Of a DNA stretch of 50,547 bases, positions 19,301 to 45,258 are shown in pieces. Made by a program: the position numbers and the translations under genes. The DNA lies in the IMG/VR virus record IMGVR_UViG_3300030329_004012, positions 1 through 50,547 of that record; one strand, written 5' to 3'. The first letter of the stretch is position 1, and every line of letters begins with the position of its first letter. The notes under the pieces were generated by a model. That model saw nothing but the letters and a program-made list of their open reading frames with translations, was not told the origin of the DNA and did no database searches. This stretch comes from a virus. Lineage: Duplodnaviria > Caudoviricetes.

Positions 19301-20739
19301 GGAATAGAAACTTTACAGATACTACTAATATGATATTTAGGTCTATGCCTGGTAGATTTAGTCAATTTAATTGGGCAGAAGACTTTTTAGCTCTTCCATC
19401 AAAACCTATAGCTTTAGCTAGTTTTGCTGGTAAATTATGGGCATTTGGTAGAGAAAAGATATATAGAATAAATCCTGAACAATTTTATATTGAATCAATT
19501 CAAGAAGGTGTAGGAATTCTTAATCAAAACTCATTAGTAGTTACTGATTTTGGTATGTTCTTTTGTGATAAAAATAGTATGTATCAACATGATGGAACAA
19601 AACCTGTAGATATAGGTGGAACAGTTTTATTTAATAATGATAATCCAGAAACAACAGTTGGTTATAGAGCTGCCTTAGACAAGTGTATATTAGAAGGTAT
19701 TGACCCAATAGTTGCATATGACGGAAGAAATAAGTGTGTTTATTTTATGGTCCAAGGTGTTAAAGAAGTTAATTCTAATGATTATACAAAAACAAAAACT
19801 GCGATGTATACTTATTATCCTAAAACAGGTAGGTTTGATTATTTACTTCTAGATTACCCAGCTAAATTTGCTGTATTAGGAAGAGATGGAGATACTTTAT
19901 TATCTACACAATACCAACTTTTTTCTTTAAGAAGAAGTAACTTAAATTCTAAAGCTTGGGATTGGACTAGTAAAGAATTTGATATGGGAACTTTAAACGT
20001 AGATAAAGTTTGGAAATCTGTAAAATTAACTGGTGCTCCTTCTTTTTCAAATTGGTCAACTACACATTTTTCCAGCATTACTGATGATGTCCAAGTTTTT
20101 ATAGATGGACATCAAAAAAAGCTTACTATTGATAATAAAAATTATAGTATATCAAAACCGATAGCAAGTTCAAATGTTAAAATGGCTAAAGGGGCAGGAC
20201 GTGATGAAGGAACAGTTTATGGTATTAAATATCCCTTGCCATCTCCTGGTTCAATAGGTAATATTAACCAAACTTTACCAGATGCATTTACTTTATATAC
20301 TTCAACTATGCCAGAGTTTAATACAGGTACAGATACATTTCAAAAAGATTACGTACAAAAAGGTGATATGCTACCAAATAACCCTTTAAAGTATATTTCT
20401 AAAGGTCAATATTTATATTTTGAAGTTTACAATGAAGTTTCTAATCAATCATTTCATGAAATAGTTAAGGTTAAAGAAATTAAACTTACATGGGATTTTT
20501 CTACAGATGAAATTAGTAAAGTAGATATTGCTTGTGATAGAGGACAATTAGGAACAACTGCTGTAGATTTTACTCAATTTATTTCAACTGATTGGGTTCA
20601 TGCTCCAATAAGATATGTTGGACCTTCTCTTAAATTACCTGGAAGAACTAAAGGTAAAAAATTACAAGTTGTATTAAAAAATCAAAGAGGTACTGTAGAT
20701 TCAGTATCATTTATTTATCGCCTAAAAACACTTAAATAA
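13330..20739 (+). CDS. Giant tail protein, 2469 aa (tail nozzle/stabilisation-like ends with a large inserted receptor-binding region)
   Basis: N-terminal FHTGII...DVP; C-terminal propeller-like GVGILNQNS...FFCDKN...WDWTSKEFDMG...KVWKSV typical of podoviral tail tubular B/stabilisation proteins. Confidence 0.7.
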   Translation: MAKEFEEIKAFHTGIIGSPSGVDVPKEAAVYSSNVDATLQQGSLIGVQDDLILSDGGWKNKRTTSSYIAFNYSEADWTSVVYPQLTNKYFIIPTYKSHWLVYFSEDSTKTSYNLIDSDAYDYWNEESPDLREYRISSYATLAFFWVSLKAFVENSMKPREDTFEYKEINTNYMTLTWEGLDQNEMDWTNGIFAVRFTNNFYGPIPNINVYHDSNISSTYIKHYPANATHGVGQIGNFFQLNWIKVLEDNEGHTLAFINNAGQFGAYENFYTETSSSTTVASGVENAGRNKITAEQRNNDLYIGVGGLSTTPSRWYGKINRRQLERTLSGSYLDELRLQSPPKLDRFYEFDKVVVPTLNRDMNSDNSMIAGAASLYCGGTVGTDFGGADVEADASINDYRSLNGWVMKCLANAGHAFQDDYTAATDDGHFDWTLSCKRGMIFRVSIGNEANAQAFSVIQDSTLGAPAAGEAIFELRKIKEIGFGDTSAVTASAEGVELHDGDLFQVVAAPKTGTDSLAQSNGNVNTYPRLLYVGSLSGTSTHHDSTTADFPAPAWSYGMFNDSSMLYRIALSECNDDNISSAETQYTFSKEGATGNTTSSTEFTKRITSYDLAHYISGVSDFKIGTIAECMSTDGLGGIGGRTSTQNLLTVDTVTRCNSVGTTGGTDDTIDKYVKFHTTANHSYIVGDWVRITNSDHHNGTHQIVWADADEFVILNNVYTDSDNSCNVIGISRNYYAGHGKLWVTSSNPEHYDKLWLVDVVNWHGQDNDSKRITAQEFKMDFDRIHSSLTSSDSGEGLLEIPWWDRTENGGQPWTDPYWTPNPKGFPSSICETHSHRPHLDDGAYNASGLGRWRVWVMYSQDSEATFNNWDLFLFNFRPTDTGNDDNKLWMYDKTPPFQECGKILDTAYAPKDKFMITRGIPHGGGNNEKYLGNGTDEAINSGSGITYTDSARQFWNDTTDLFSDSNMTNIPGDFVLNAGEIYDTKTGGTNTTPSNAKLRRNGGHLIIRDILHTYWDQGTTLGRPISSGVQGHVDHTREHGHIDAVQGGLCYKDPSGMWHMIELPFYRGDSSGFNNATYGDDTHRAQYSLRMGYNIGWYRDNITEDNARSHAPTRHCLIPYYSQWWSVKALEVEDIPGDNDEDVAHIVTFSSEVSGKFVQDGGYIVANYNAFNKVLHWQGNPGESASGATLGIQNYDKKQVLCTMHDSPVAFTSSDAYGNIGFETDSVSDLDSVTDWSGNGNTFTDSTCDYDNDPTVTCNANSQIMPDMSVSGTGIPTGAYVDSVDTPGAVTSFELRNLNGTALSTTGGAVTDGTLTFSKGIPEVQGRPTKAANDAGVIDVEAGRDTQNGVRATLGYSKYNQYRWGHDFNGTHDLHVDDYTTTNPWNTWDSYKGQDGYGHYNMITTTWCSNAYSSSSGFENEDKDYLDGNNKWTYGQLRCRHFNVDHGGPNDYSKGAGTFSGSRGEGTGYFTWYTNMDNTQTSIASLYATEFGDRPVGDNAGGNYEIDDPEIIQWGRYYWNGMDRGYYASDIAFQKNISGNVVMNSVVDGGEDEVPGGKQWQNRRIVWCWSVMPFITGGTKNSSASPYVFLKAPRVTQRPINAYFTYTESGTDERTYDIKVHALDNYATYYDLNSLNTYSSCTMIYATAPDLSGTKRTMILVVIPVHGNGDNEDSSNFKIRLAYKWNQGIRPLRLGSTEQARRMFYNEKLTGKNLCHGLLHKGNTYDVYCPIMWGSSKDNDNQMVLHYRRSQWPTMSTSAAGPTDLHYLFDKFYDYEDVANCFGGFDNADGALSTRFPLEQLGSYQGTGTGTSSTVSGDNDDDGCHLKTSIQMGFSAATGGAASGTTDFHTGDVVEYKLSYLYDGYQDGPLSDWVYQYDNGTALTGDLDHLICTLELARAELLGLSPRVTDVVVWRRNNETDEFRYVHQVNLEELGNGPETTNETYVATFKDRVAMQSYQATTGLSETLKSSEMNFATSAQLADFLFVADVWNRNFTDTTNMIFRSMPGRFSQFNWAEDFLALPSKPIALASFAGKLWAFGREKIYRINPEQFYIESIQEGVGILNQNSLVVTDFGMFFCDKNSMYQHDGTKPVDIGGTVLFNNDNPETTVGYRAALDKCILEGIDPIVAYDGRNKCVYFMVQGVKEVNSNDYTKTKTAMYTYYPKTGRFDYLLLDYPAKFAVLGRDGDTLLSTQYQLFSLRRSNLNSKAWDWTSKEFDMGTLNVDKVWKSVKLTGAPSFSNWSTTHFSSITDDVQVFIDGHQKKLTIDNKNYSISKPIASSNVKMAKGAGRDEGTVYGIKYPLPSPGSIGNINQTLPDAFTLYTSTMPEFNTGTDTFQKDYVQKGDMLPNNPLKYISKGQYLYFEVYNEVSNQSFHEIVKVKEIKLTWDFSTDEISKVDIACDRGQLGTTAVDFTQFISTDWVHAPIRYVGPSLKLPGRTKGKKLQVVLKNQRGTVDSVSFIYRLKTLK

Positions 20740-22125: not shown

Positions 22126-22875
22126 ATGCAATTAAAAGATTATGGAAGATTTGGTGATACTGAGATTCGTAATATTGATGGTGAACCAAATCACGTAAAC
22201 GAAGTTGAAGCTCATTGGATAGATAACTATGGTTTATTAGGACAATTAGCTACTAAAGCATCTGGTTCTGGAACTACTAATCCTCATACTGGATATACAG
22301 AAAGATTCCCTTGGATACAAGCTGCTATAGCAGTTGGTTCCTATCTTTTAAATGATTCTGCTAGTGATAAAGCTGCAGATACTATGGCTGGAGTTTCAGG
22401 TAGAGTTGAAGAACATTTGGAACCATGGAAAAGTTCTATAAGTGAATACCAAAATATGTCTAAAGAATATATAGACCCTTTTAGTGTTGCAAATCAATCC
22501 CAGCGTCAAGATATAAGAAATCAAGCTATGGATTTTGTAGGTATGCAAGATGTAATGAATAGGCGTAATTTGGCTAGTGGTGGATTAGGTGGATTTAGTG
22601 GTGTTGCAAATCAGAATTTAGCCTCTGCAACACAAGCTGCTTCTGTTCAATCAGAGCAAGCATTTCAAGACCAATTTTTGCAAAATAAAAAATTCGGAAC
22701 ATCTTTAATGGATAGTTACATCCAAAACTTAAGAGCTTACGGAGAAACAATGGCTCAAGGACAAATTCAAAATGATGCTATGTTAGCACAACAACAGCAA
22801 CAATCTGGTTCAGGAATGGCTATGGGCCTTTTAAATGCTGGATTGAATATTTTTGGTGGTGGAGGCGCAGCATAA
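22126..22875 (+). CDS. Internal virion / DNA ejection (pilot) protein
   Basis: GRFGDT...HVN..EA...GSGTTNPHTG..E motif; Gln/Ala/Gly-rich helical body; hydrophobic Gly-rich tail. Confidence 0.65.
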   Translation: MQLKDYGRFGDTEIRNIDGEPNHVNEVEAHWIDNYGLLGQLATKASGSGTTNPHTGYTERFPWIQAAIAVGSYLLNDSASDKAADTMAGVSGRVEEHLEPWKSSISEYQNMSKEYIDPFSVANQSQRQDIRNQAMDFVGMQDVMNRRNLASGGLGGFSGVANQNLASATQAASVQSEQAFQDQFLQNKKFGTSLMDSYIQNLRAYGETMAQGQIQNDAMLAQQQQQSGSGMAMGLLNAGLNIFGGGGAA

Positions 22876-22878
22876 AAA

Positions 22879-23343
22879 ATGGCATATAATGATAATAATT
22901 TTTCAATAGCAAATAGTCAAAATGTTCCAGCAGGAACATTCGGAATATCACAAACTGATAATCCATTCTCTGTAGGAACTAACGCAGGAATGAACAATAC
23001 ACCAGCTAACAACCCATTTTCTATAGGAAATTCTCCTAATTTAATTTCAAGAGGTGTTGATGAATTTAGTCAGAGAATAATGCCTACATCTAATTTTTCT
23101 ATGCCTGGCATTAATCCATCTACTGATGATGGTACTAATTGGGATAAAGTAATGACAGGTGTTAGTGAAGCTTTAAGTAACTATCGTTTTCCATCTCCTT
23201 CTGCAGCTCAAAGACAAGTTCAGAAGGCAAATCCTATAAATACTCGTACAGATTTTTTATCTCCTCCACAAAGAGGTGGTCTTTTACAAGAATTGATGAT
23301 GAAGAATTATATGCAAAATAAAAATATGAGAGGATTAGGTTAA
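22879..23343 (+). CDS. Internal virion protein candidate (Asn/Pro-rich, repeated NPFS)
   Basis: NNFSI, DNPFSV, NNPFSI repeats; located in the ejection cluster. Confidence 0.55.
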   Translation: MAYNDNNFSIANSQNVPAGTFGISQTDNPFSVGTNAGMNNTPANNPFSIGNSPNLISRGVDEFSQRIMPTSNFSMPGINPSTDDGTNWDKVMTGVSEALSNYRFPSPSAAQRQVQKANPINTRTDFLSPPQRGGLLQELMMKNYMQNKNMRGLG

Positions 23344-24500
23344 TGGCGTTAGATTGGACACCTTTACAAACTCCTGCTCTTCAAAGAGCTCAGAATACAT
23401 ATGATATGAATGCAATGATGACTGAAATGGCAGCATTAGGATTGCATGAAATTACTCGTAGGCCAGATATATCAACAAAAGATGCTGATGAATTTATTAG
23501 AGGTTATGGTAGAAGTTGGTATAAAGACGAAGGTAAAGGTACTTATGATACTTATGAAGATTTTGTAGCTGATAATCCTCTTTTACAACTAGCTGAAACA
23601 GGAACTCAAATGAGGTATGATTCTAGTGGTAAACTAGAATATAAAGAAGGTGATAAATGGAGTTCAGATTTATCTGCTATAACTGGAGGACAATCAGACC
23701 AGGCATATGGAGGCGGAACAGGAGAAGAAATATTTTCACCTTTTGGGATAAAAACTGATACAGGAGTTTCAGGAACAGGAGATGCTTCAATTTTTGAGAC
23801 AGATTTAGATAACGCTTGGAGACTTGGTATAAAAGGTCCAGAAGGGTTGCAATATAAAGCTCCAAAAAGTATGTTAGGTGCTTTATTTCATAGAGATACT
23901 TATAGACCTACAGGTGGAACTTATCAAACAGATAAAGGTACTGTTTCAAGAAAACTTCCAGGACAAAATATATTTCAACAAGTAGGAAAAGGAGTATCAA
24001 ATGTTGCAAGTAATGTTTATCAAAAAGGGGCTGGATTAGTAACTGGAGTAGGCGATGAACTAAAAGGGGCAGGCTCTCAATTAAAAGGAGCTATTGGAGA
24101 TTTACTAAGTAATCGAACTAAACAAGATGAGGTTGCTAATTATAGTTTTAGCGATGATGGTACAGTTATAGCTACGAATAAACCTGATACATACGTGTTA
24201 CAACCAGGAGATACTCTAGATGCAATCGGTAGAAAATGGGGTGTTCATTGGCCAAAGATTCTTGAATGGAATAATTTAACTGAAGAAGATGCATATAAAC
24301 TTCCTGTAGGATATAAACTAAGACTAACTGCTCCTTCTTCAAAAGAAGGCAGTGACCAATCAGGAACTTTAGCTAGTGATGATTTAGCAAATGAAACTGA
24401 CCCTACATTAAGTGGAAATTATACTCCTAAATGGTACGAAAGTGCTTACGGTTTAGCAACAGAAAATAAATGGCCAGGTCCATATGGAGATAGAAAATAA
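23343..24500 (+). CDS. Internal virion protein with a LysM domain
   Basis: YVLQPGDTLDAIGRKWGV...ILEWNNL...LPVGYKLRL matches the LysM consensus. Confidence 0.8.
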   Translation: MALDWTPLQTPALQRAQNTYDMNAMMTEMAALGLHEITRRPDISTKDADEFIRGYGRSWYKDEGKGTYDTYEDFVADNPLLQLAETGTQMRYDSSGKLEYKEGDKWSSDLSAITGGQSDQAYGGGTGEEIFSPFGIKTDTGVSGTGDASIFETDLDNAWRLGIKGPEGLQYKAPKSMLGALFHRDTYRPTGGTYQTDKGTVSRKLPGQNIFQQVGKGVSNVASNVYQKGAGLVTGVGDELKGAGSQLKGAIGDLLSNRTKQDEVANYSFSDDGTVIATNKPDTYVLQPGDTLDAIGRKWGVHWPKILEWNNLTEEDAYKLPVGYKLRLTAPSSKEGSDQSGTLASDDLANETDPTLSGNYTPKWYESAYGLATENKWPGPYGDRK

Positions 24501-25609
24501 TGTCATACTTTCAACAAATAAATCAATTAAAAGAGCAACAAGCTCAAAGATATATGGAAAATTACTGGGGTCAACAGCAAGCTTTATACGGTGGTAACAG
24601 TGGAAAATTTATAGAAAACGATGCAGGTAAAGTTGTTTATACTGGAAGAGGCAATGAACTTCCTTCATTAAACGAATTATGGTCAAAATTTCAAAGGGGA
24701 GCTCAATCGAGAGGATTAAAAGCTAATTATTTAACTTTTAAAAATAACTATGATATGATGAAAAAGGTTCAAGATAATCAGTATTTAGGTCACTTACAAA
24801 ATGCTGAGCTAAGAGGTATCCCTTTAGATAAAATTCATGATGCATTACAAGAAAATCCTAAACTAAGGAATAAACTTATAACTGCTGCTGGCGATGGTTC
24901 TCCTGAAGGTAATCAATTTATATCTCATTATAATCCTGAAAGAGAAACTAGTATAAGTGATATGATAGGAGAAAAAAGTTGGTTAGCAGCTCCTTTATTG
25001 TTTGGTGGTAAAGCCGCTTATGACTTTGCTATGTCTCCAACAAAAGAGGCTAAAGATATTTATGAAGCTTCTAAATCTAAATCACAGAAACTTCTTGATG
25101 ATGCAAAGAAAAAATTAGCTGATTCTGAAAAAAAACAAAAAAGAGCTAGAACGGACAAATCAAAAAAGAAACACACTAAAGATATAGCAACTCATAAGAA
25201 AGCTGTCACAAAATACACAAATCAAATATCTAAAATAAAAGAACCTCCTACTAGATGGAGTGCTAGAAAATGGTTTAAACCAGGTGGTGGTAAAATGGGT
25301 GGCTATGGTGATATAGCAGCTTATGTTGCTCCTGGAATTGTTGAAACAGCCTTAAAGAAGGTAGGTGTTAAAGATAAAGAAGCAGAGATAGCTGGTGATG
25401 TTACTGGAGTTGGTACTGGAGGCTACTTACTTACAAGAGGTATTCTTGGTCTTATTAGAAGCAAAGGTCTAAGTCCAGCTGCTTGGATGCAAACTGCAGG
25501 TGGAGCACAGCAATTATACGGAGCAGGTAAGGAGTACGCGACAGGATTATTCTCAGGAGATGAACCAGATGCTGAAGTTCCAGAATCCCAAACTCCAACA
25601 GTTTATTAA
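24500..25609 (+). CDS. Internal virion / ejection protein candidate
   Basis: Lys-rich coiled coil plus Gly-rich hydrophobic segments; directly upstream of the giant protein. Confidence 0.55.
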   Translation: MSYFQQINQLKEQQAQRYMENYWGQQQALYGGNSGKFIENDAGKVVYTGRGNELPSLNELWSKFQRGAQSRGLKANYLTFKNNYDMMKKVQDNQYLGHLQNAELRGIPLDKIHDALQENPKLRNKLITAAGDGSPEGNQFISHYNPERETSISDMIGEKSWLAAPLLFGGKAAYDFAMSPTKEAKDIYEASKSKSQKLLDDAKKKLADSEKKQKRARTDKSKKKHTKDIATHKKAVTKYTNQISKIKEPPTRWSARKWFKPGGGKMGGYGDIAAYVAPGIVETALKKVGVKDKEAEIAGDVTGVGTGGYLLTRGILGLIRSKGLSPAAWMQTAGGAQQLYGAGKEYATGLFSGDEPDAEVPESQTPTVY

Positions 25610-25618
25610 GAGGTTCTT

Positions 25619-28600
25619 ATGCCTATAAATCTTGGGTATCAATATCCAAACTTTTCTTCACAACCTAATACGTATACTCCTATAGGTGATAATGCTGCAA
25701 CTGAAGAAGGATTTCAACCTAATTTAAGTGAAAAAAATCTAAAGGATTTAATTAGTTTATACAAAAAAAATCCTACATTAATACCCCCACAACAAGTAGA
25801 CAATATGCAGAAGCATGCTGTATTATATAATGTCCCTTTTCATAAGGGAGATTTTAGTATAATGGGAGCTTTGTCTGAATTTGGTAAAGGTTTCTTATCT
25901 GGTTTTACAACTATGGATATAGGAGACCCTCCTGATAATGAATATGAAGCAATCATTAGGAATATAGGGCATTTAGCAGGGTTTGCTCCAGGTATAGCTG
26001 CTGGACCTTTAAAAGCGTTAAGAGTTCCTGCTTTAGCTCAAGCTGCTATGGCTTTAAATAATAGGTCAGTTCCTATGATGGGTGCTAATTGGTTAACTAA
26101 AAAAGCTAAAAAGATTGTTAAACCTGCTTTAGAAACAGCTATAAAAGGTAAGGGAGATGCTACAAAAACAATCACCAAATTCTTATTAGGTCCTAAAGCA
26201 AAGCATATGGCTGAAGGTGCATTTCATCTTGGAGCTGCTAGTGCTATTAGTTCTTGGACACAAGGAGTTGATGCTATGATGCATTCGGCTTTTGGTGGAG
26301 CTGTTGCTGGTGGTGCATTCAGAGCTATGGGTAATTTTGTAAACACAGGAAGTAAAGATGCTGATAAAATAGTAAGAGGTTTAGCAGGTTCTTTATTTAT
26401 GGGTTTACCTGCTACTGCAAGAGGAGCAACTACTGCTGAGCAAGTATATGAATATTTATTAGGTGCTTATTTTGGTGGTAAAGAAATGCCTTGGTATAAA
26501 GCTAAGGGAGCTAAAACTATGGCATCCTTAGAAAAACAAGCTCAGAAGAATCCAGAACTAGCTATTACTAGAGACCCACGTCTTTTAAAGGAATGGAAAA
26601 GTTTAGAGCCTGAAGTTCAAAAAGAAGTTAAAGAACTAGCAGAAAAAGCATATGGAAATGCTGATGAAAGAAGTGCTGCTGCTCATTTATTAATGAAAGA
26701 AATGGGTATATTAGATAAGAATACTAAACTACCTACTCCACAAGGATTTACCGAATTAAAGAAAGTTGTTGGCGGTCAAGAACTTATTAGATTAACCGAC
26801 CCTAACCAAGTTCTTCATCATGGTATATCTGGAGCATCAAGAGGTTCTGATGCTTATTGGGCTATAGTTGGAAAAAATTATCAAGTTCCATTTGTTCACT
26901 ACTCTTTTAAAGGGCAAAAAACTAGTAGAGGCGCTGGAAAAATAAGAGAATTAAATCAAGCTGAACTTGCAGAAGCTAATATAAAAATTAAAAAGGCAGA
27001 TGAAAGTTTAAATAGATTAAAAGGGAAACAAGCTAAAGGGTTTACACAAAAACTTTTACAAAGAAATTGGTGGCAAGTAAAGACATCTAGAGGAATTTAT
27101 GCTTTAGGTAAAATTATTAAAGGAGGAACTGAACTACAAGGCGGTAGTGGTTGGGCTACTCAAATGGCTATCGATGCAAGAAAAAAACATGTTTATGCTT
27201 GGGACACAGCTTCAAAGAAATGGCATAGATATGATTATAAACTTAAAAAGTTTAGAATGCTTGATAGGACACCTAAACTTGTAAAGCGTTTTGCTGGTAT
27301 AGGTACAAGAAAATTAAGTAACGAAGGTAGAAAAGCAATAGAAGATATATATGCGGTTACTTTTGGAAAGAAAAAACCTTTAGTTACTAGAAAAGCTGAA
27401 GCAATTTCTGAAAAAGATATATCAGTTATACCTGCAGAACGTTTAAAAAGACTAAACGAATTATCAGAACAAGAAGTTATTTTAGATAAAGAGTTAGATA
27501 TTCATATTCAAGATTCTAAGAATCCAGATTTATCTAATTCTCAAAGAATTTCTGCTAAAAAAGAAGCGCAAAAAGTTGCAGCACAACTTAATGAAATTAG
27601 AAAAGAAATGAAAGATGAAGCCTATTCAACAGTAAAGGAAGAAGAATTACAATCTTCTGAAACTCAAGATGGCAATGATATTGGAATGATATCTGGTAGG
27701 GAATTAGAAAAGAAATCTGTTTATTTTATAGATAAATACGCAAAAAAACTTTGGGACGATGCAGGGTACACACCTGTAATGAAACTCACTAAAAAGGCCC
27801 AATTTGCGAGTATTTTACAAGATATAGTAAATAAACCTAAATATTCTAAAAAAGGTTCAAGGGTTAAAGTTGAAGAAATAATTAATGAATTTGAGTCAAC
27901 AATAAAAAAACAAGGCGAAGATATATCTATAAGAGCTGAAGGAAAAAGAAATTTAAGACAATGGTTAACTTTAAAAAGCTTTGGTAAACAAGTTAGATAT
28001 TTAAGAGCAGATGATAGAGGTATATATATTGCCCCCTTAGATAGAGTTATTACAAGGGCTGGTAATAAAAAATTAGTTAATGAACCTACTAAACGATTAG
28101 AGGAAGTATTTTTAGAATTAGGAGGCAAGGAAACAGATAAAGAACCTCCTATTGTTATTTTTGATACTATAACCTCTGGTAAGGATGGCGCTTATAAAGA
28201 CTTAAGCCTATCTAGATATAGACAAATGGAAGAAAGAGATGACTTTACTGGTACTCCTTATTATTCTTATATAAAGAAAGTTTTTAAGAAGATGTTAGGT
28301 AAAGGTTACTATCCTTTTGGAGGTAGAGGAGATGCTGATGCTATAACATTTGTTAAAATGAATCCTATGCTAACTAATAAATCTGAAATGAGATTATTTA
28401 AAAGAGCTGTTGAAAAATCTTTAGGACAAAAAGGGATAAAACAAATAAAAGATGGAATGGCTTTATTTAAAAAGACATATGGATTAAGTAATAAAGTTCA
28501 GGATATGTATTATTCTAACCTTCTTTATGATATTCAAATGAATGGATTTAGACCTGACTTACAAGTTGGTACTAGATTAGAAAAAGCAAAGATATGGAAT

Positions 28601-31600
28601 GATACAGTTTCTAAATTTTTTAGAGACAATAAAACGTTTATTCCTAATGCAACTGCTTTAAACAAAAGAAATCAAATATGGTTTACTCCTGGATGGAAAG
28701 CAGACCGTGAATTTGTTAAAGACTTTATGAAAACTAGGTCAGGTAAAAAAGGTTTTATAAATGATTTGATAACAAAATTAGACGAATTAAATATACCTGT
28801 TATTTATAAGACTAAAATTACTTCAGCCCTTCAGCCTGATGTATATACCGCAGCAAGAACAAACCGTAAAACTCGTGAAATATATATAGATAAAGATTTA
28901 ATGAAAAAGAAATTCAAGGAAAAAGCTTGGACAAAACCTAGGATGAAAGGTGTTGACCCTTTACCTGAAGATGCTTTTAAAACTTATAAGCAATGGGAAA
29001 ACTTTGTAATCGCTCATGAAAGAGCTCATTTTACTAAAGAAAATCAAGCTTTACCTAAAGGTCCTGAAAGAGAAAATCATGCTAATAAAGTTGCTTTAGA
29101 TGTTGTTCAAGGTAAACAAGATTCATTTAAATATATTATAGTTAAAGATGTTGATAAAGAATTAGGGAGAAGAATAAAGCTAACTGATAAAAATAGTGAC
29201 GACCCTACAAGTGTAGATGGTATGATTATAGTTAGAGATGATATTGTTGATGCTATAAATGCAGATGCTGGACAACCACCTTCTGGGCAAAATAAATCAT
29301 TTATTGTTAGTCCTGATAGTAATAATGGAGCATTGCTTGGTAAATATATGATGCATTCTGCTGGCCGAGAAGCAACTAGAGCTATGCAAAAGAAGGGATT
29401 ACATTTTATAATGCAAGAATCAGCAGTTAAACAAGCTGGTGATAGAAAAATAGGTTCATATAGTTATGATGGAAAGTCTTTAAAATATAGCTCTCCTGAG
29501 TATTCCCTTCCTATAGAGCATATAAAATATAACTACTCAGTTAAACAAGATGCTCATATGTTAGACCCTAAACGTATTCCTAAGCAGCTATTTATGGCTA
29601 TGGGTAAGAATGCTTTCTCAGAGTTCTCTAATGATTTAATAAATGATTTCTTTACTGAAACAGTTTATAAAAGATTTAGGGGAGAAGATGCTTATAATAA
29701 TATGTTAGACAACTATATAAATAATCCTAGGAAAGAAAAGTTAAATGAATTACTAGACAATATTGACAAAGTAGGAATAGATAATTTGTTACATGCTATT
29801 AAACATGGTCATAATGATTTTACTGATTTGGCTTATGCTAAGCTAATGAAATTTAATAGAGAAGCTTTACGTGAAATGGTAGCTTCTGGAGAAATGTCTG
29901 CTGAAAGAATGCAAGAAGTAGAAAATAATTTACTTGAATTTAATACTGCAACAGATAGATTAATTAAAGAATCTGATATATGGTCTACAAAAGAGAAGGC
30001 TGCAGGTCGTGATGGAGATATTACTCCTATATTTTTACATAAATATGTCAGACCTTTTAGAGTTCAGGTTATTAGAAATTATATAATGGAAAATTTATCA
30101 AAACCTAAGATAAAAAATTCAGCTGTAGCTCGTATGAGAGGTTATGATAAGTTTTTTCAATCTAAAAAAGAATTTAAAGAACTTGAAACAAGAGATGATA
30201 TATTCTTTTTAGATGAGTCTTATAGAGATTTAAAACTAGATACTCATTTAGGAAAGGAATTTAATACTTTAGGTAAATTATGGGAAGCATATGTTAGTAA
30301 GGGTAAAAAATGGGTTCATAGAGCTGATGCTAAAGAAATATTAAGAGCTGCTACTGTTCGTGTTCCTATGGATTCTACTAGTGGTGCTCAAGTAATGCAT
30401 TTTGGAGGATTTACTGGAAGAAAAGGTCATGGTATAATGATGCATTCAAGAGCTATGAAAGCTGAAGGTGGTGCTGACCTTGATGGAGATGAAGCGTTTA
30501 TCTTCTTTGGTGGTAGAAAAGGCGGAAAAGGTGATGGATTTAAAAAGTCTTGGAAAGATGCATTTAGAGCTAATAAAGAAGAGTTTTATGAAGGTGGAGA
30601 ATTAGAAACTATCTCACGATTTTCTCCTTCATTATTAAAAGCAAATCCAGATAAAGTGTATTTGTTTGGAGATAATTTAGCAAAAGTTGGAAGAGGACCT
30701 GGGGCTGGTCAAGCTATTATAAGAGATGAGCCTAATGCTTATGGTATTCCGACTAAAAAAAGTCCACGAGTATTTATGACTGACAAAGAATATGATGCTA
30801 ATATAAAAGCTATAGATAAAGCTTTTAATTCTGTGCCTAAGGATAAAACTGTAGTTCTTCCAAAAGATGGGCTTGGTACTGGTAGAGCTCAATTAAAAAC
30901 TAAAGCGCCTAAAACTTGGGCTTATTTACAAAAGAAACTGAATGAACTAAAATCTAGCCGAGGTCAAGCTGAATATACTTACGATAATAAAAATGAAAAA
31001 GTAAGAAAAGAATTAACGCTTCAAGATAGTATATCAGAAACTGGTATAGACCCTAAAGTAAGAGATAGTGCTGCTTGGAAATACATGCCTGGTTGGAGAG
31101 TTATGATTTCAGAAAGAGCTAGAGATGGAAGGAATCAATTGGGTTCAGCTTCTAATAATGTTCAATTATTAAAAGCATTTCATAATTCTTTATTAGAAAA
31201 AGGGCAAGATAGATACTTTATAGGTAAAGGGAAAAATAAAAAAGAGATTATTGTAACACCTAAAAAGGATATAACCAAAGCAAGAAAGCTAGCCTCTTCT
31301 ATGATAGCTTTTGCATCTGACCCTTTAGATGAAGCAGGATTAAGAAACTATAAAAATTGGTATGTTAAATTATATGATTCCTATTTTAACGTAACTAAAG
31401 ATGGTAAAAAAGTTAGATTAACTGAAAAAGATTTTAATTCTTTATCTTATAATGGTATGTATAATCAGTTAAGAAAAATGAACCAAGGTATGTTCAGTAG
31501 AAATTGGTCTGCTGATAGAAATTTCAATATGCATGAAATTAATATGATGACAGCAGGTGTAACAGATAAAACTACATTTGGTAATGAGTCTTTTAGAAAT

Positions 31601-34600
31601 ACAATGTTACCTAAATTAGCTAGTATCGCTAATAAGATAGACTATTCTGATTCGGTTTATCGTAGAGCTCACCTTACATCATTAGAAAATATGTATAAAG
31701 AACATACTGAATTAATTAAAAAATATCCTGATTTGGTTAAATTATTAGGAAGAAGTACTATAGATGTTCCATTAAATAACTACGTAAAAAATGTTAAAGA
31801 ATTTTATTTATACAATGACAATGCTATTGATATTGTTTCAAAGAATTATACAACTTTTGTTAAAGCATTAAAGGGGACTCATTTTTCTCATAAGCTTAAA
31901 GCAGGTGAACTTAAAGATAATACTTGGAAGAATATTCAAAAAAGAAAATTTGTTCTAGAGAAATTAAGAGACCTTTCAGAAGACTTTTTAGTAAATGATA
32001 TAACAGATATGGTTACAGTTAAACTATTAGCTAAAGATGCTGGTAAAGTTTCTAAAAATGAATTTAAAGAGATACATAGATTCACAGATAAATTAAAGAA
32101 ACAAAGTTATTTAATGGCTAAAAATAGACGTAATTTTATGGACTCCTTTAATCGATTAGATAAAATGGACCCTGAGCATAGAGAATTTTTTAGAGAAATG
32201 TATAATGCTCATGAGAAACTTTATGGGAAAGAAGAAACAAAGAAAGTTTTTCCTGGGGGAAGAAAACAATTTGAAACTCCTGTTGAAGATATATCTGCAT
32301 TAAAAGACCAGCTTGAAATAGATGCTGAACTTAAAACCTTTAAACAAAAGTTAAGTCCTGAAGGGAAAAGACTTACAGATATACTTATGTTAGGTTCTTT
32401 AAGAAGAGGAAAGCTTAGTGAAATAAATAAGCTAGATAAAGAATGGGGTAAGAAACTTAGAAAAGACCCTTTATATGAAGATTTATTGCATAGTTTAAAA
32501 ATGAAAGGTTCAAAGACTGGTGTTTCTAAACTAGGACTATCTTCTCAGGAAGTTGATGGTAAAGTTTTAAGAGAATTTTTTGGAGAGTTTTCTAAAGTTA
32601 TGCGTAAATCTTGGGATAAACCAACTGAACTTGATGCTGAAGTAAAGGATGCGAATAAACGTAAAGAAGGAACTGTTAATGAAGAGTTTATTGATAAGAA
32701 AGTAGAAGGAACTGAAGTTGATGAAATATATTCAGGTTTTGAAGGTTTAGAAAAAGCTGATTTATCTGTATTAACTCCTGAAAAAAGGCAAATAATTACA
32801 GAACTTGCAGAGAATCTAAAGTTTTATAATAATAAAATGGGGAAAGACTTAAATGCTTTAACTAGAGGAATGTTCGAAAAAGATTTAAATGCTATGAACT
32901 TAGCTGATTTTGCTGATATGAATGCTTACTTTAAAGAAGTTAGAGGTGGAACTATATGGCAAAAGTTATTTAATGAGAAAACTCCTGATATGAGAAAAAG
33001 ATATTGGTGGCAATTTCCAGCTACTGTTGGAAGAGAAATGATGAAGTATGAGATAATGTTCTTAAAGAGTAAAGGTATATTTAAAACACAAAAAGGATTA
33101 GTGCCTGAAAAAGGTGGTGTAATAATGAAGCCTACCAATGTAATATCAGCAGCTCAAAAAATTCTTGGAAGAATGTCAGAACAAGGTGTTCAAGAAGGTG
33201 AAAGACTTGTTGGTGACTTAAGAAAAAAACTTGGATTTTTAGAAGGACTATCAGATGGTGAAGCATTAAGAAGACTTGCTGTAGCTAAAGCTGAAACAGC
33301 TGAAATAGAAAGAATATTCAATAGTGAACATATACCAAATGAACTAAAAGGTATTCAAGCTGATGAGTATAGATTAAGATACAAGGAAGAATTAAAAAAA
33401 TCTGATTATATAAATAAAAAAGATAAGAAGTATATCGTAACTAATACTAAAGGTGAAAGAGAAACTTTAAAGGGAAGTGATATAGTTAAAAGAGTTGAAG
33501 AAGTCTATGATGCTCATTTTAAGGAAATGTTTAAAACAATTGAAGGTGAATCAGGTGTTCTTGATAAATATACCTTAGGTTATTATGATAAAAATATAAA
33601 AGAAAAGCCTATAATTGACCATAAAGCTTTTATAAAGGATGTGTTAAAAGACTTTAATGCAGGTAAAGGTATCTCTCTTAAATATGGTCTAACTCCATTA
33701 AGACATATTTCTAGGTCTATGATGATTGAACAAGCTAAAATCTTAGGCAATCAAAAGCTTTTAACTAAGCTATTAAAATTTGAAATACCTACTGTTCGTA
33801 GAATTAGAGAAGGTTATTATCCTCATATGTTCTTTAGCAAATCTAAAGCTATGGATGCTTTGAAAAGGGCTCATGACTATATAAAGAATTTACCTGAAAA
33901 TGTTATGTCAAAAGAAGATAAGATTGTTCAAATACAAAAGCTACTTACTAAACACAAGACTCTTACTGGTGATTGGATGGAAGGGATAGAAAATTGGGAT
34001 GCTTTTGATAAAGCTGTCCAAAATATAAAAGAGAAAAAAAGTACTGACCCTATTAGTGCATTTGATAATGCTAATCAAATGACAGGTTCTATGCATCATA
34101 GAATGTCTCATGTTGGAGGATGGTCTATTGATGCGGCTGCTGCTGAATCATATACTCGTAATCAAATAAACACTTACTATAAACAATTCTCTCAAATTAT
34201 GTCTCGTGATTTATTAAATAAATTTACTGAAAAGGCTATGTCTAAGCCTCATGAATGGCATAAAATTAAAGATTATGGCGATAATACATCTTTATTAACC
34301 AGATGGCAAAATTGGTTAAAACTTTATATATCTGAATCTATGGGAAGTCCTAGTATTATACCTGACTTTATATTAAATGACCCTAAAATGAAAGTAAAAG
34401 GTACTCCTTATGCTTGGTGGGCTGATAATAAAGTTAAAGAAAAAGCTAATAAAATAGCTAAAAAGCTAGGATTAAGAGGTAAAAATTTACTTACTGTTAA
34501 AGAAGACCTTGAAAGAATTGACTATAATGATATACGACATTGGTCTAATCTTGAAGCTAAATTCGAATTAATGTCTTTACTTGCTCATCCAAAGTCTGCT

Positions 34601-35704
34601 GTAGCTAATATATTTGGTGGTTCTTTACATACTGTACAATCAACGGGTTTAGAATATTTAAGAAAAGCAAGAAGTATAAGTGATTTACAAAAAATAAATC
34701 CTAATTGGGAATCTTTAACTGATGTTGATAAGTTTGTTGTAAAGCATGGTGTATTACCAGAATTCATTATTGCTGAACTAGGTTTGTCTAGAGAAGCTCA
34801 AGCTACTAATGTAAAAGCATTTATTAAAGATTTATCTGCTAAAATAACTAAAACTGGTGAAGTTGATAAGGAAACTTTAAGAGATATAAATCGTAAACAT
34901 AAAGTTAGTGAAAGTATAATGAATAAAGCAGCTAAATTTATGTCTGTTCCTGAAAGAGCTCTTCGTAGAGATGCGTTTATGGCTCATTATATTAAAGCTT
35001 GGGAAAGATTTGGTGGAGCTATAAAAAATCCAGACCATCCATTCTTAATTGAAATGGCTAAGAAAGGTGTTAAAGCTACACAGTTCTTATATAGTGCTCC
35101 ATATAGACCAGCTTTTGCCAGAACAGCTCTTGGTAAGGTGATGACTCGTTTCCAATTGTGGTCTTGGAATGCTGTAAGGTTTAGAAATGATGTTATAAGA
35201 GAAGCTAAAGTAAGGGGATATAGAAGAGGTACTGCTGAATTTGAGAGGTTTAAGAGAACAATGCAAACAGACTTGTTTGTTTTAGCTCTTGCTAATGCAT
35301 TTGCTTATTCTTTATTTGATAGTGCTTTACCAGCTCCTTACAACTGGTTAAAGGATACTTCTGAATGGATATTCGGTGATGAAAAAGAGAGAAACAAAGC
35401 CTTTTTTGGAACTTGGCCTAGTGCTATAGCTCCCTTACAAATTGTTACTCCTCCTATAATGAGACTTCCTGTTGCGGGATTAAGAGCATTTTTAGATAAT
35501 GACTATGAAAAATTAGCTCATTATCATGTGTATACTATGTTACCATTTGGAAGAATGGTAAGAGATGTATCTCCACTTGCTAAAGGTAATTTGATAGAAA
35601 ACCCTAGTAGAATACTAGAGAAATCAATGGGATTTCCGTTAGGGGATTTACAAGGTATGGCAAAGAAAATAAAAGAGGGTGATGCCTATCATCCTAGATA
35701 TTAA
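25619..35704 (+). CDS. Giant virion protein, 3361 aa: putative two-barrel (DPBB) virion RNA polymerase with accessory domains
   Basis: R1581-V-P and GGAD1620LDGD motif; upstream DG (D1200), LLGK1242 and SAVK1271; SLOG-like (about aa 400-580), HExxH (H1133) and macro-like (about aa 1680-1775) inserts. Confidence 0.78.
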   Translation: MPINLGYQYPNFSSQPNTYTPIGDNAATEEGFQPNLSEKNLKDLISLYKKNPTLIPPQQVDNMQKHAVLYNVPFHKGDFSIMGALSEFGKGFLSGFTTMDIGDPPDNEYEAIIRNIGHLAGFAPGIAAGPLKALRVPALAQAAMALNNRSVPMMGANWLTKKAKKIVKPALETAIKGKGDATKTITKFLLGPKAKHMAEGAFHLGAASAISSWTQGVDAMMHSAFGGAVAGGAFRAMGNFVNTGSKDADKIVRGLAGSLFMGLPATARGATTAEQVYEYLLGAYFGGKEMPWYKAKGAKTMASLEKQAQKNPELAITRDPRLLKEWKSLEPEVQKEVKELAEKAYGNADERSAAAHLLMKEMGILDKNTKLPTPQGFTELKKVVGGQELIRLTDPNQVLHHGISGASRGSDAYWAIVGKNYQVPFVHYSFKGQKTSRGAGKIRELNQAELAEANIKIKKADESLNRLKGKQAKGFTQKLLQRNWWQVKTSRGIYALGKIIKGGTELQGGSGWATQMAIDARKKHVYAWDTASKKWHRYDYKLKKFRMLDRTPKLVKRFAGIGTRKLSNEGRKAIEDIYAVTFGKKKPLVTRKAEAISEKDISVIPAERLKRLNELSEQEVILDKELDIHIQDSKNPDLSNSQRISAKKEAQKVAAQLNEIRKEMKDEAYSTVKEEELQSSETQDGNDIGMISGRELEKKSVYFIDKYAKKLWDDAGYTPVMKLTKKAQFASILQDIVNKPKYSKKGSRVKVEEIINEFESTIKKQGEDISIRAEGKRNLRQWLTLKSFGKQVRYLRADDRGIYIAPLDRVITRAGNKKLVNEPTKRLEEVFLELGGKETDKEPPIVIFDTITSGKDGAYKDLSLSRYRQMEERDDFTGTPYYSYIKKVFKKMLGKGYYPFGGRGDADAITFVKMNPMLTNKSEMRLFKRAVEKSLGQKGIKQIKDGMALFKKTYGLSNKVQDMYYSNLLYDIQMNGFRPDLQVGTRLEKAKIWNDTVSKFFRDNKTFIPNATALNKRNQIWFTPGWKADREFVKDFMKTRSGKKGFINDLITKLDELNIPVIYKTKITSALQPDVYTAARTNRKTREIYIDKDLMKKKFKEKAWTKPRMKGVDPLPEDAFKTYKQWENFVIAHERAHFTKENQALPKGPERENHANKVALDVVQGKQDSFKYIIVKDVDKELGRRIKLTDKNSDDPTSVDGMIIVRDDIVDAINADAGQPPSGQNKSFIVSPDSNNGALLGKYMMHSAGREATRAMQKKGLHFIMQESAVKQAGDRKIGSYSYDGKSLKYSSPEYSLPIEHIKYNYSVKQDAHMLDPKRIPKQLFMAMGKNAFSEFSNDLINDFFTETVYKRFRGEDAYNNMLDNYINNPRKEKLNELLDNIDKVGIDNLLHAIKHGHNDFTDLAYAKLMKFNREALREMVASGEMSAERMQEVENNLLEFNTATDRLIKESDIWSTKEKAAGRDGDITPIFLHKYVRPFRVQVIRNYIMENLSKPKIKNSAVARMRGYDKFFQSKKEFKELETRDDIFFLDESYRDLKLDTHLGKEFNTLGKLWEAYVSKGKKWVHRADAKEILRAATVRVPMDSTSGAQVMHFGGFTGRKGHGIMMHSRAMKAEGGADLDGDEAFIFFGGRKGGKGDGFKKSWKDAFRANKEEFYEGGELETISRFSPSLLKANPDKVYLFGDNLAKVGRGPGAGQAIIRDEPNAYGIPTKKSPRVFMTDKEYDANIKAIDKAFNSVPKDKTVVLPKDGLGTGRAQLKTKAPKTWAYLQKKLNELKSSRGQAEYTYDNKNEKVRKELTLQDSISETGIDPKVRDSAAWKYMPGWRVMISERARDGRNQLGSASNNVQLLKAFHNSLLEKGQDRYFIGKGKNKKEIIVTPKKDITKARKLASSMIAFASDPLDEAGLRNYKNWYVKLYDSYFNVTKDGKKVRLTEKDFNSLSYNGMYNQLRKMNQGMFSRNWSADRNFNMHEINMMTAGVTDKTTFGNESFRNTMLPKLASIANKIDYSDSVYRRAHLTSLENMYKEHTELIKKYPDLVKLLGRSTIDVPLNNYVKNVKEFYLYNDNAIDIVSKNYTTFVKALKGTHFSHKLKAGELKDNTWKNIQKRKFVLEKLRDLSEDFLVNDITDMVTVKLLAKDAGKVSKNEFKEIHRFTDKLKKQSYLMAKNRRNFMDSFNRLDKMDPEHREFFREMYNAHEKLYGKEETKKVFPGGRKQFETPVEDISALKDQLEIDAELKTFKQKLSPEGKRLTDILMLGSLRRGKLSEINKLDKEWGKKLRKDPLYEDLLHSLKMKGSKTGVSKLGLSSQEVDGKVLREFFGEFSKVMRKSWDKPTELDAEVKDANKRKEGTVNEEFIDKKVEGTEVDEIYSGFEGLEKADLSVLTPEKRQIITELAENLKFYNNKMGKDLNALTRGMFEKDLNAMNLADFADMNAYFKEVRGGTIWQKLFNEKTPDMRKRYWWQFPATVGREMMKYEIMFLKSKGIFKTQKGLVPEKGGVIMKPTNVISAAQKILGRMSEQGVQEGERLVGDLRKKLGFLEGLSDGEALRRLAVAKAETAEIERIFNSEHIPNELKGIQADEYRLRYKEELKKSDYINKKDKKYIVTNTKGERETLKGSDIVKRVEEVYDAHFKEMFKTIEGESGVLDKYTLGYYDKNIKEKPIIDHKAFIKDVLKDFNAGKGISLKYGLTPLRHISRSMMIEQAKILGNQKLLTKLLKFEIPTVRRIREGYYPHMFFSKSKAMDALKRAHDYIKNLPENVMSKEDKIVQIQKLLTKHKTLTGDWMEGIENWDAFDKAVQNIKEKKSTDPISAFDNANQMTGSMHHRMSHVGGWSIDAAAAESYTRNQINTYYKQFSQIMSRDLLNKFTEKAMSKPHEWHKIKDYGDNTSLLTRWQNWLKLYISESMGSPSIIPDFILNDPKMKVKGTPYAWWADNKVKEKANKIAKKLGLRGKNLLTVKEDLERIDYNDIRHWSNLEAKFELMSLLAHPKSAVANIFGGSLHTVQSTGLEYLRKARSISDLQKINPNWESLTDVDKFVVKHGVLPEFIIAELGLSREAQATNVKAFIKDLSAKITKTGEVDKETLRDINRKHKVSESIMNKAAKFMSVPERALRRDAFMAHYIKAWERFGGAIKNPDHPFLIEMAKKGVKATQFLYSAPYRPAFARTALGKVMTRFQLWSWNAVRFRNDVIREAKVRGYRRGTAEFERFKRTMQTDLFVLALANAFAYSLFDSALPAPYNWLKDTSEWIFGDEKERNKAFFGTWPSAIAPLQIVTPPIMRLPVAGLRAFLDNDYEKLAHYHVYTMLPFGRMVRDVSPLAKGNLIENPSRILEKSMGFPLGDLQGMAKKIKEGDAYHPRY

Positions 35705-40937: not shown

Positions 40938-41103
40938 CTCTTCTTTCTATTCTTATTGTTATTAGGTTATTTTCTACATCGGGATTTAATACAATCTTAT
41001 CTCCAATTTTCCAACCCATTATATCATTCCATACTTCAGGTGGTAAATTAGTGCAATGAGGATTGCTTCTGAGTGTTGATTTAAAACCTTTTATCGTACT
41101 CAT
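40918..41103 (-). CDS. AbrB/SpoVT-like small DNA-binding protein
   Basis: NLPPEV...MGWKIGDKIVL...ITI swapped-hairpin pattern. Confidence 0.6.
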   Translation of the reverse strand: MSTIKGFKSTLRSNPHCTNLPPEVWNDIMGWKIGDKIVLNPDVENNLITIRIERRGEDGDI

Positions 41104-41768
41104 TTCTTACCCTCCTTTTTATATATTTTATCCCATTCAAAAGGTATACATTTACCTCGTAAGTGTTCACATCTACTACCTGCTTCTACAGATTCGTCTG
41201 CTTTAAATGAAATCATTAGTTTATCGTCTTCTCTTAAGACATAACCGATAGCATCACAATCTGACATAATCAGATTCTTCAGCTTACCAGTTATATCTAA
41301 AGATTCAGGTTCAACTAGGGCTTTGCCATCTATGACTGCCCTAGCAACCTTTCTATGTCCAACGATTATTAAATGGTCACAAACATCTCTAAAAGCATTG
41401 ATAGTATTCATTACTTTTTCACGAGCTAACGCATAACCTTTACCAAAAGTTAAATCTGCTATTGATGCAACTTCATACTCTGCACAAACAGCTTTTTCAG
41501 CCCATTCTACTACTTTGTCAATAGTATCTAAAGCTATATATTTAAACTCATGGCCTTCCATAACATCTTTAAGAGTTTGGATTAACTCTTCTCTGTTATT
41601 TACTTCTTGAACGTATGCTTCTAGCATTTGCGTTCCTTTTTCAGTATCTACAATCAAACAGTCCTCTAACTGAGAGAGCATAGTAGTTTTACCTACTTTG
41701 GGTGCTCCATACAGAAGAAGTACCTTCGGATTCAGAGACACTGGTTTGCGTTTCTGTTTCTTTATCAC
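41100..41768 (-). CDS. AAA_24 / Sak4-like ssDNA-annealing ATPase
   Basis: YGAPKVGKTT, DTEKG, IALDTI, IIVGH, CDAIGY. Confidence 0.85.
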   Translation of the reverse strand: MIKKQKRKPVSLNPKVLLLYGAPKVGKTTMLSQLEDCLIVDTEKGTQMLEAYVQEVNNREELIQTLKDVMEGHEFKYIALDTIDKVVEWAEKAVCAEYEVASIADLTFGKGYALAREKVMNTINAFRDVCDHLIIVGHRKVARAVIDGKALVEPESLDITGKLKNLIMSDCDAIGYVLREDDKLMISFKADESVEAGSRCEHLRGKCIPFEWDKIYKKEGKK

Positions 41769-44812: not shown

Positions 44813-44833
44813 TGTTACCTCGTTTCTTTGTTT

Positions 44834-45186: not shown

Positions 45187-45220
45187 TTAAGTCTCCTTTA
45201 TTGATGTTATTTATTAAGTA

Positions 45221-45258
45221 GACCTGACAAGCAACACCAATATTTAACTTGTCAGGTC
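45221..45258. repeat. 11-bp perfect inverted repeat upstream of the Ubl gene
   Basis: GACCTGACAAG-16 nt-CTTGTCAGGTC. Confidence 0.75.

Follow-up and report, generated by a model that had tools for sequence, protein, structure and literature searches.

The window analysed here, the whole 50,547-nt virus record IMGVR_UViG_3300030329_004012 of IMG/VR (Caudoviricetes; a marine phage), contains as its largest gene an uninterrupted open reading frame (ORF) with an ATG start (25619..35704, + strand) that encodes a protein of 3,361 amino acids (aa). With a probability of about 0.7, this multi-domain, polyvalent protein contains a single-chain, DNA-dependent two-barrel RNA polymerase (RNAP) and is of a kind that is made late, packaged in the virion and ejected with the DNA, and that transcribes the first phage genes in the manner of crAss-like phages and phage N4. 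An earlier note, made from the sequence alone, had already proposed a two-barrel RNA polymerase, and this reading is supported by the predicted fold, by invariant residues and by a profile match to crAss-like RNAPs. Delivery by injection is probable from the position and synteny of the gene, the absence of cysteine (Cys), a PLxRFG-like C-terminus and an accessory domain shared with virion RNAPs.

Translation of the ORF and a regular-expression search bore out the motif positions given in the earlier note. RVP was found at R1581, the only D.DGD of the translation was DLDGD (D1620, D1622, D1624), and the upstream motifs DG (D1200, G1201), LLGK (K1242) and SAVK (K1271) were confirmed. Homologues were collected by searching aa 1150-1670 against 5.8 billion proteins on the basis of word and hidden Markov model (HMM) similarity, with no selection for the motif, which yielded 390 proteins (clusters at 90% identity) at E<=1e-3. 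Among the 120 homologues listed, nearly all were 2,000-3,650 aa long; they were encoded on contigs of up to 57 kb, with lengths of 40-57 kb recurring, and several came from records with Tara Oceans labels. The pattern G[AGS]D.D[GA]D was present in 119 of the 121 proteins including the query (118 GADLDGD and one GADLDAD) and the remaining two read GGADLDID, so that the Asp triad was kept in 121 of 121. Lack of conservation of this motif among homologues had been named beforehand as an outcome that would refute the prediction; the conservation found indicates that the motif is not a chance occurrence. The rare Ile at the fourth position of the loop (2/121) recalls the DFDID of crAss-like phages.

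A profile search with HMMER retrieved 409 representatives (50% identity) at E<=1e-3, 364 of them at E<=1e-10; the best 150 matches all contained a strong core match, most being about 3,000 aa long and the others shorter pieces. Moreover, 80 related IMG/VR loci were fetched via the patterns GGADLDGD and RVPMD and were not counted as motif evidence. A search for related loci with the single protein gave no match, whereas the alignment query did retrieve loci. A 70-sequence alignment was built from the pattern-fetched loci, and the 121-protein set is the only unbiased test of the motif. Nine residues (K1242, K1271, R1276, R1581, P1583, D1585, D1620, D1622 and D1624) were invariant in the 70-sequence alignment.

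The core of the protein (aa 1151-2350; model residue 1 corresponds to aa 1151) was modelled by AlphaFold2 from the 70-sequence alignment, with a pLDDT of 81.2, a pTM of 0.78 and low confidence only around an inserted DUF7831 domain. Foldseek comparison with gp66 of phage phi14:2 and with QDE-1 had been suggested in the earlier note, and both were matched by the core model. Searching the PDB by Foldseek revealed phi14:2 gp66 (6vr4_A) as the top match (E 1.5e-7), followed by QDE-1 entries (from 6.6e-4), maize RDR2 and then bacterial beta-prime subunits at E 0.1-0.5. The model was also compared with 48,161 representative chains by VIA-align. The highest scores were obtained for QDE-1 (Z 18.2, 432 aligned residues, root-mean-square deviation 4.8, model 5-859 versus chain 680-1179) and RDR2 (Z 13.9, 366 aligned), followed by phi14:2 gp66 (Z 12.4, 554 aligned, model 4-1178 versus chain 902-1981), P74-26 gp62 (Z 11.6, 380 aligned) and P23-45 gp96 (Z 9.3, 299-300 aligned), while multisubunit RNAPs of cells and viruses (Pol I, Pol II, vaccinia, AR9 and African swine fever virus) gave Z 8-9 with 193-279 aligned residues.

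The pair of double-psi beta-barrels (DPBBs) expected for such an enzyme, whose absence the earlier note had named as refuting its proposal, was present in the predicted structure, both barrels aligning with QDE-1, RDR2, gp66, gp62 and gp96 (Z 9-18). The alignments to QDE-1, RDR2, gp66 and gp62 begin at model residues 4-17, and isolated DPBB domains (VAT-N and designed DPBBs) align to model residues 346-504, corresponding to the second barrel (Z 5.8-6.8). In the model, the DLDGD loop follows helix 460-465 and precedes strand 475-480. The modelled chain combines two features of the superfamily, two DPBBs in one polypeptide and a DxDxD loop on the beta-prime-like barrel. On the first barrel, K1271 aligns with a conserved Lys of crAss-like RNAPs; K1242 and K1271 may correspond to the lysines of the beta subunit. 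The barrels are joined by a helical connector of roughly double the 140 residues given for gp66 and QDE-1 in the gp66 preprint. Downstream of the second barrel, a long pair of helices (aa 1824-1861, model helices 674-711) carries the invariant residues R1827 and R1838 (R677 and R688 of the model), and the QDE-1 and gp66 alignments extend beyond it; in the model this pair may represent the bridge helix.

The conservation of the active site also bears on whether the protein could be a structural or ejection protein with a polymerase-like fold that has lost polymerisation. Such a loss would agree with two thirds of the protein not being polymerase, with the C-terminal 460 aa being better conserved than the core and with the inactive conformation of the catalytic loop in the gp66 crystal. 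However, none of the 121 homologues has lost any of the three Asp at core identities down to 38%, and the Lys, Arg and Pro residues around the site are invariant, which would be unexpected in a relic. Loss of activity is therefore regarded as very unlikely.

Archaeal PolD DP2 belongs to the two-barrel superfamily as well, and a PolD-like DNA polymerase might be the seemingly missing replicase of this genome. In the 35 ORFs scanned, 19 of which were without any family, neither a DNA polymerase nor a sigma factor nor a further RNA polymerase family was detected. The statement of the earlier note that the genome has no DNA polymerase holds insofar as ORFs of at least 100 aa matched none of the polymerase families of Pfam or PHROGs, but it is weakened by those 19 ORFs. 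A 522-aa ORF (43283-44851) was checked against PDB sequences as a hidden polymerase and gave no match. A PolD-like function of the 3,361-aa protein appears extremely improbable, although the evidence here is weak: no PolD chain was found in the best 50 VIA or the best 50 Foldseek rows, which were all RNAPs or isolated barrels.

The relationship to known polymerases could be followed in sequence profiles, too. Comparison of the family profile with gp66 alone by hhalign (E 0.14) placed LRAATVRVP...GGADLDGD over LRAIGYRIP...GSDFDID in gp66 1313-1373. When nine crAss-like RNAP segments, cut from GenBank records and aligned by MAFFT, were used instead, the match reached E 1.8e-5 with a probability of 78% over 421 columns; RVP...GGADLDGD was again placed over RIP...GSDFDID, and SAVKQ of the first barrel over GVKVG. 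In the BFVD database the model matched two unnamed family members first (E 1e-50 and 8e-47), and the next 21 matches (E<=1e-3) included named crAss-like giant proteins and phi14:2 (1.4e-4), nine being unnamed. At the sequence level, this indicates remote homology to the orthologues of gp66 and not orthology.

Several features are shared with gp66 of the crAss-like Cellulophaga phage phi14:2 (PDB 6VR4), which is likewise a single chain with two DPBBs and a helical connector and is nearly Cys-free, the protein described here being fully so. In phi14:2 as in the present genome the RNAP gene ends the structural strand (g067, g066 and g065 in phi14:2), both structural blocks include a metallophosphoesterase, and some crAss versions are proteins of more than 4,000 aa with the same DprA-like domain or with NADAR. 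In contrast, the loop is DLDGD with the canonical Gly instead of the DFDID, DFDVD or DYDID of the crAss-like segments retrieved, the genome is 50.4 kb with a P22-like portal and an SU10-like capsid and adaptor, whereas the terminase, portal and capsid of Crassvirales are of the crAss type and their genomes measure about 90-105 kb, and no ORF matches the structural region of phi14:2 at E<1e-2 (BLAST) nor does the polymerase have a PHROG match. Unlike in phi14:2, the C-terminal module is PLxRFG-like and counterparts of gp65 and gp67 were not recognised. By its loop type, genome backbone and BLAST-level similarity, the protein does not belong to the crAss family.

The likeness to eukaryotic RNA-dependent RNA polymerases (RdRPs), which had been noted from the motif, is real both in the motif (DLDGD at residues 830-834 of Arabidopsis RDR2) and in the fold. 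QDE-1 (7Y7P, 2J7N) and RDR2 (7W84) have the highest VIA Z-scores, 18.2 and 13.9 versus 12.4 for gp66, and the catalytic loop of RDR2 is identical. An enzyme copying phage or host transcripts, like QDE-1 and RDR, would account for both observations. However, identity to QDE-1 and RDR2 is 10-12%, the Pfam RdRP family (PF05183) does not match, and the context is a giant phage protein with unrelated flanking modules. According to the gp66 preprint, transcription by QDE-1 itself is more robust on single-stranded DNA than on RNA, and gp66, the nearest phage relative and the first in the Foldseek ranking, is DNA-dependent; moreover, a DNA phage has no apparent role for the synthesis of double-stranded RNA. 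An RNA-templated enzyme is accordingly considered highly improbable. On the exact plant RDR loop and the order of these Z-scores rests a more far-reaching reading, namely that this marine podovirus family, and not the crAss-like phages, is the closest known viral relative of the eukaryotic RNA interference (RNAi) polymerases. In this reading the Cys-free run of five genes (22126-35704) would, in addition, be the complete ejected set. We offer it tentatively and with more doubt than belief.

The single-chain two-barrel RNAPs of other phages were compared as well. P23-45 gp96 (fused to the tape measure), P74-26 gp62 and P23-45 gp64 are of this type, and gp96 likewise resides in a giant virion protein that exits via the tail. 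They differ in originating from Thermus siphoviruses and, for gp96, in having no clamp; their Z-scores are below those of QDE-1 and gp66.

Delivery into the cell is suggested by four independent lines of evidence: the position of the gene, the absence of Cys, the C-terminus and the shared accessory domain. As stated in the earlier note, it is the last gene of its cluster: it is the final + strand gene and converges on a - strand block that starts at 35719. Since it closes the structural strand, an arrangement also kept in relatives, and since the domain at aa 404-633 is also fused to crAss-like (cr113_1) and N4-like (Pylas) virion RNAPs, delivery by the phage particle is probable. This domain shows 30-38% identity to phage proteins (E down to 2e-23 by tblastn) and is missing in about one quarter of the relatives. 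It is found inside the virion RNAP of Klebsiella phage Pylas and at the C-end of the 4,328-aa crAss cr113_1 protein, which also holds a gp66-like region. The term DprA-like is the annotation of the resembling phage proteins; Pfam DprA (DNA_processg_A, PF02481) did not match aa 404-633 at E<=10.

A second line of evidence is the absence of cysteine. The 3,361-aa protein contains no Cys, nor do the four genes directly upstream, one of which (23343-24500) gave LysM and transglycosylase-like matches; homologues of these genes lie on the same strand upstream of the polymerase gene in relatives. Over the five genes of 22126-35704 no Cys occurs in 4,518 aa, where about 40 would be expected (Poisson about 4e-18) from the other 31 ORFs (93 Cys in 10,474 aa). 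Of 107 homologues with more than 2,800 aa, 106 were also free of Cys and none had Cys in its last 10 aa; Cys was likewise absent in 77 of 80 loci. Comparison proteins behave similarly: the N4-like virion RNAP of Pylas has 0 Cys in 3,819 aa and the PLxRFG protein of Klebsiella phage SopranoGao 0 in 4,369 aa, while gp65, gp66 and gp67 of phi14:2 (g065-g067), which the GenBank record annotates from tandem mass spectrometry proteomics, have 1-2 Cys each per 1,400-2,200 aa. The Cys content of portals and capsids from these phages is 0.25-0.64%. The four upstream genes are candidates for fellow ejection proteins.

The N4-like virion RNAP (vRNAP) of Pylas (gp65, 3,819 aa) resembles the present protein in exceeding 3,000 aa, in lacking Cys and in sharing the accessory domain; its packaging and injection are matched by what is proposed here. 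The vRNAP of N4 transcribes early genes and its catalytic domain is of the T7 type, unrelated to the two-barrel enzymes. No T7-type structure was among the rows listed for the core model in the fold searches. SopranoGao gp6 (Klebsiella Lastavirus, 4,369 aa), encoded by a podovirus genome of about 60 kb, is similar in being the product of the largest gene, the last of the structural block and just ahead of the lysis genes, in having 0 Cys and in carrying swappable enzyme domains. Its payload differs, consisting of an SLT transglycosylase, an Eco57I-type methylase, a helicase and LPD39, with no polymerase; a hidden RNAP core in gp6 was considered and rejected (hhalign E 0.65).

Fold and catalytic residues would fit equally well with an active two-barrel RNAP that is not injected and that serves middle or late gene transcription or the synthesis of replication primers. 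Single-chain two-barrel RNAPs outside the virion exist (P74-26 gp62, Z 11.6, and gp64, described in the P23-45 paper), and the genome lacks a recognisable DNA polymerase family. Nevertheless, the gene is placed at the end of the late structural strand, away from the early genes, the total absence of Cys is common to known packaged proteins, and the protein has a PLxRFG-like C-terminus and the accessory domain that virion RNAPs also carry. Furthermore, the infection cycle cannot begin with a polymerase that is produced only late, and the genome already encodes a primase-helicase. This alternative is judged unlikely.

For a packaged and injected polymerase, packaging, injection, template, timing and the roles of the accessory modules are what we infer in the following scheme. 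The protein would be made late, together with the structural genes, and packaged in the capsid. On infection it would be threaded through the short tail, at least partly unfolded, along with the four small Cys-free upstream proteins. Conserved N- and C-terminal modules, the latter PLxRFG-like with a hydrophobic helix, would function in packaging or ejection. Inside the cell, the central core (aa ~1170-2330) would refold, and Mg2+ would be bound by D1620, D1622 and D1624 on the second barrel, opposite K1242 and K1271 on the first. The enzyme would then begin phage transcription without the host RNA polymerase, the first genes most likely being those of the - strand block from 48315. The swappable inserts (the DprA-like domain, the HExxH insert and DUF7831) are probably accessory or counter-defence enzymes within the same polypeptide.

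Several observations weigh against this interpretation. RNAP activity and presence in the virion are deduced from sequence and a model, the protein being known here from genes, and the active-site geometry, bridge helix and trigger loop were placed from alignment ranges and secondary structure only. The match to the single gp66 sequence (E 0.14) is weak, and the E of 1.8e-5 stems from a purpose-built one-to-one profile comparison in which a stop codon was present in one of the nine rows. Pfam, PHROGs and NCBIfam revealed no polymerase family, either in the whole protein or in pieces of it. In a six-frame search of the genome neither PF05183 (RdRP) nor PF00623 matched at E<=10, and PF05183 was also missing at E<=1 from the Pfam scan of the protein. 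Searching PDB sequences with the protein (phmmer) and the core profile (hmmsearch) returned one row at chance level (E 1.6). All PLxRFG matches, at 18-35 bits, are under the cut-off of 100 bits, and the absence of Cys could stem from causes other than ejection. A repeated early-promoter motif was not found: the sole repeated 10-mer corresponded to two pairs of TGAATTAAC-like words in - strand intergenic regions (~45469/45492, and ~48348/48365 just upstream of the first - strand gene). Finally, a pattern scan of a genome collection with one genome for each of 185,579 species yielded no relative and no clue to the host.

The gene is blank in current annotation libraries except for DUF7831. In addition to the scans above, the ESM Atlas gave no usable match, megablast of 24 kb against phage records no match, and tblastn with aa 1-3,000 as the query matched only accessory domains, none of the 50,697 phage records searched covering more than 13% of the query. 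No paper on the family was found; it may already be among the published 23 RNAP families (PMC10770324).

Experimental proof of two-barrel RNAPs carried in the virion exists only from crAss-like phages and from Thermus phage P23-45. If the proposed reading is correct, the virion RNAP strategy would also exist in an unrelated lineage of phages with genomes of about 50 kb, the start of infection would be independent of the host polymerase, and the injected protein would be modular, with the polymerase as one of its payloads and with SLOG, AlkB-like, NADAR and DUF7831 domains in the other slots of different relatives. It would also add new sequence diversity for the origin of eukaryotic RNAi polymerases, and the Cys-free signature could be of use in detecting ejected proteins of metagenomic phages. 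Should the family moreover be the closest viral relative of the RNAi polymerases, it would be better suited to model the proposed origin of RdRPs from phages; should the five-gene run be the ejected set, total absence of Cys would be a simple genomic signature of ejected cargo in uncultured phages.

Coordinates of the features of the 3,361-aa protein and of the genes upstream (positions in the window; aa and model numbering as in the text)
Feature	Position	Strand	Basis
Whole gene, Cys-free polyvalent protein with predicted two-barrel RNAP core	25619..35704	+	ORF, 0 Cys, fold
Conserved N-terminal region, aa 50-350	25766..26668	+	conservation profile, 35 sequences
Accessory domain, aa 404-633, like phage proteins annotated 'DprA-like'	26828..27517	+	tblastn
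Insert, aa ~1050-1150, with HERAH (HExxH) at aa 1133-1137	28766..29068; motif 29015-29029	+	regular expression
Predicted first barrel (beta-like, DPBB-B), aa ~1169-1305, invariant K1242/K1271	29123..29533	+	model strands 19-154
Helical connector, aa ~1310-1495	29546..30103	+	model helices 162-344
Predicted second barrel (beta-prime-like, DPBB-A), aa ~1500-1632, R1581-V-P and putative metal-binding loop	30116..30514	+	model strands 351-480
Putative catalytic loop DLDGD (D1620, D1622, D1624)	30476..30490	+	triad in 121/121
DUF7831 insert, aa 1671-1772, just past the catalytic barrel	30629..30934	+	Pfam PF25176, PHROG 2072
Rest of predicted polymerase module, aa ~1818-2328	31070..32602	+	gp66 alignment to model 1178, QDE-1 to 859
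C-terminal 1,011 aa, all-helical	32669..35701	+	AlphaFold2 pLDDT 70
Partial PLxRFG match (NCBIfam NF032893)	34901..35179	+	25 bits, E 9.6e-8
Most hydrophobic segment, aa 3219-3237, LFVLALANAFAYSLFDSAL	35273..35329	+	Kyte-Doolittle 19-residue mean 1.62
Four upstream genes (249, 154, 385 with LysM, and 369 aa), Cys-free	22126..25609	+	0 Cys each

Outside the polymerase core the protein is composed of conserved ends and variable slots. The N-terminal region is rich in Gly and Ala (23% G+A) with mildly hydrophobic stretches and found no family in the library scans; it possibly functions in packaging or ejection. A moderately conserved stretch (aa 700-1050) precedes the HERAH insert. The position of this insert consists of 97% gaps in 35 aligned members and the insert is missing from the 34 members other than the query; it showed no family or phage match, and the motif makes it a possible zinc peptidase, which is only a guess. 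DUF7831 was detected with E 8.4e-29 and 100.3 bits versus a gathering cut-off of 27. Its region shows 72-91% gaps in relatives across aa 1651-1750, and the domain occurs as a stand-alone gene of about 115 aa in many other phages (tblastn, 100 phage records).

In 13 relatives examined with Pfam, cpYpsA SLOG (2), AlkB-like 2OG-Fe(II) oxygenase (2), NADAR (1), DUF1848 (1) and DUF7831 (2) were recognised. Differing enzyme domains occupy the variable slots of five relatives (P0032, P0041, P0186, P0243 and P0245), one NADAR adjoining DUF7831; this points to a counter-defence payload that can be exchanged.

Conservation within the family is highest in the last 460 aa. No known fold was recognised for the C-terminal 1,011 aa (Foldseek best E 0.062, VIA best Z 5.5); matches of this part to the N4 vRNAP (E 0.58) and to the PhiM1 ejectosome (Z 4.7) were rejected as noise, and tblastn of the C-terminal 462 aa against phages gave no match. 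The PLxRFG match spans profile positions 296-382 of 681 with 24-25 bits versus a curated cut-off of 100 bits. A similar partial match of 18-35 bits, at profile positions within ~257-445, was obtained for 37 of 44 relatives and was the only family hit in NCBIfam. Direct comparison of the SopranoGao PLxRFG protein with aa 3076-3186 by BLASTP gave 27% identity over 112 aa (E 0.006). The last 460 aa also include the sole strongly hydrophobic helix of the protein (aa 3219-3237), a candidate for insertion into a membrane.

Bases 1-98 of the window are repeated exactly at 50449-50546 and CheckV reports 100% completeness, so that the record represents a whole genome of about 50.4 kb (~50,448 bp) that is circular or terminally redundant; the endolysin gene spans the junction of the genome ends. 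Two gene blocks diverge from 48316-48837. The + strand block comprises structure and lysis genes, including terminase, P22-like portal, SU10-like capsid and adaptor and the LysM/transglycosylase-like protein, and the - strand block, starting at 48315, has small ORFs followed by ThiF-like, Sak4-like, primase-helicase, HNH and exonuclease genes. Across the 80 related loci, an HNH gene was found downstream on the opposite strand in 55, a primase-helicase in 42 and a 2,469-aa ORF upstream in 39.

Scans with Rfam (E<=0.1) and for tRNAs gave no match. A gene-free stretch of 769 nt, in which one of the pairs of TGAATTAAC-like words occurs, lies inside the - strand block (45187-45955, - strand sense), and a second of 522 nt lies between the divergent blocks (48316-48837, - strand sense) and is seemingly richer in GC than its surroundings. 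One relative shares 71% identity with the whole of the latter, and in another, of which the core is only ~55% identical, two blocks of it are 86% identical; five of five more distant relatives gave no match to this element. A 44-nt block (48527-48570), single-copy in the genome, is near-identical in two closer relatives, and the adjoining 189 nt fold with z = -2.95 and have no Rfam match. This conserved element may act as a promoter or leader, serve as an origin or encode a small RNA.

The second giant ORF (13330-20739, +) encodes 2,469 aa with 27 Cys and internal direct repeats. It has no family in Pfam, PHROGs or NCBIfam and presumably forms a tail fibre or spike. In the middle of the structural block lies a gene for a metallophosphoesterase (PHROG 221; 10941-11732, +), and the metallophosphatase genes of phi14:2 are comparably placed. 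In the - strand block, the ThiF-family (E1-like) ORF (41689-42435) and the gene of the Sak4-like annealing protein (41100-41768) overlap by 80 nt, and the start codon of one of them was probably called too early.

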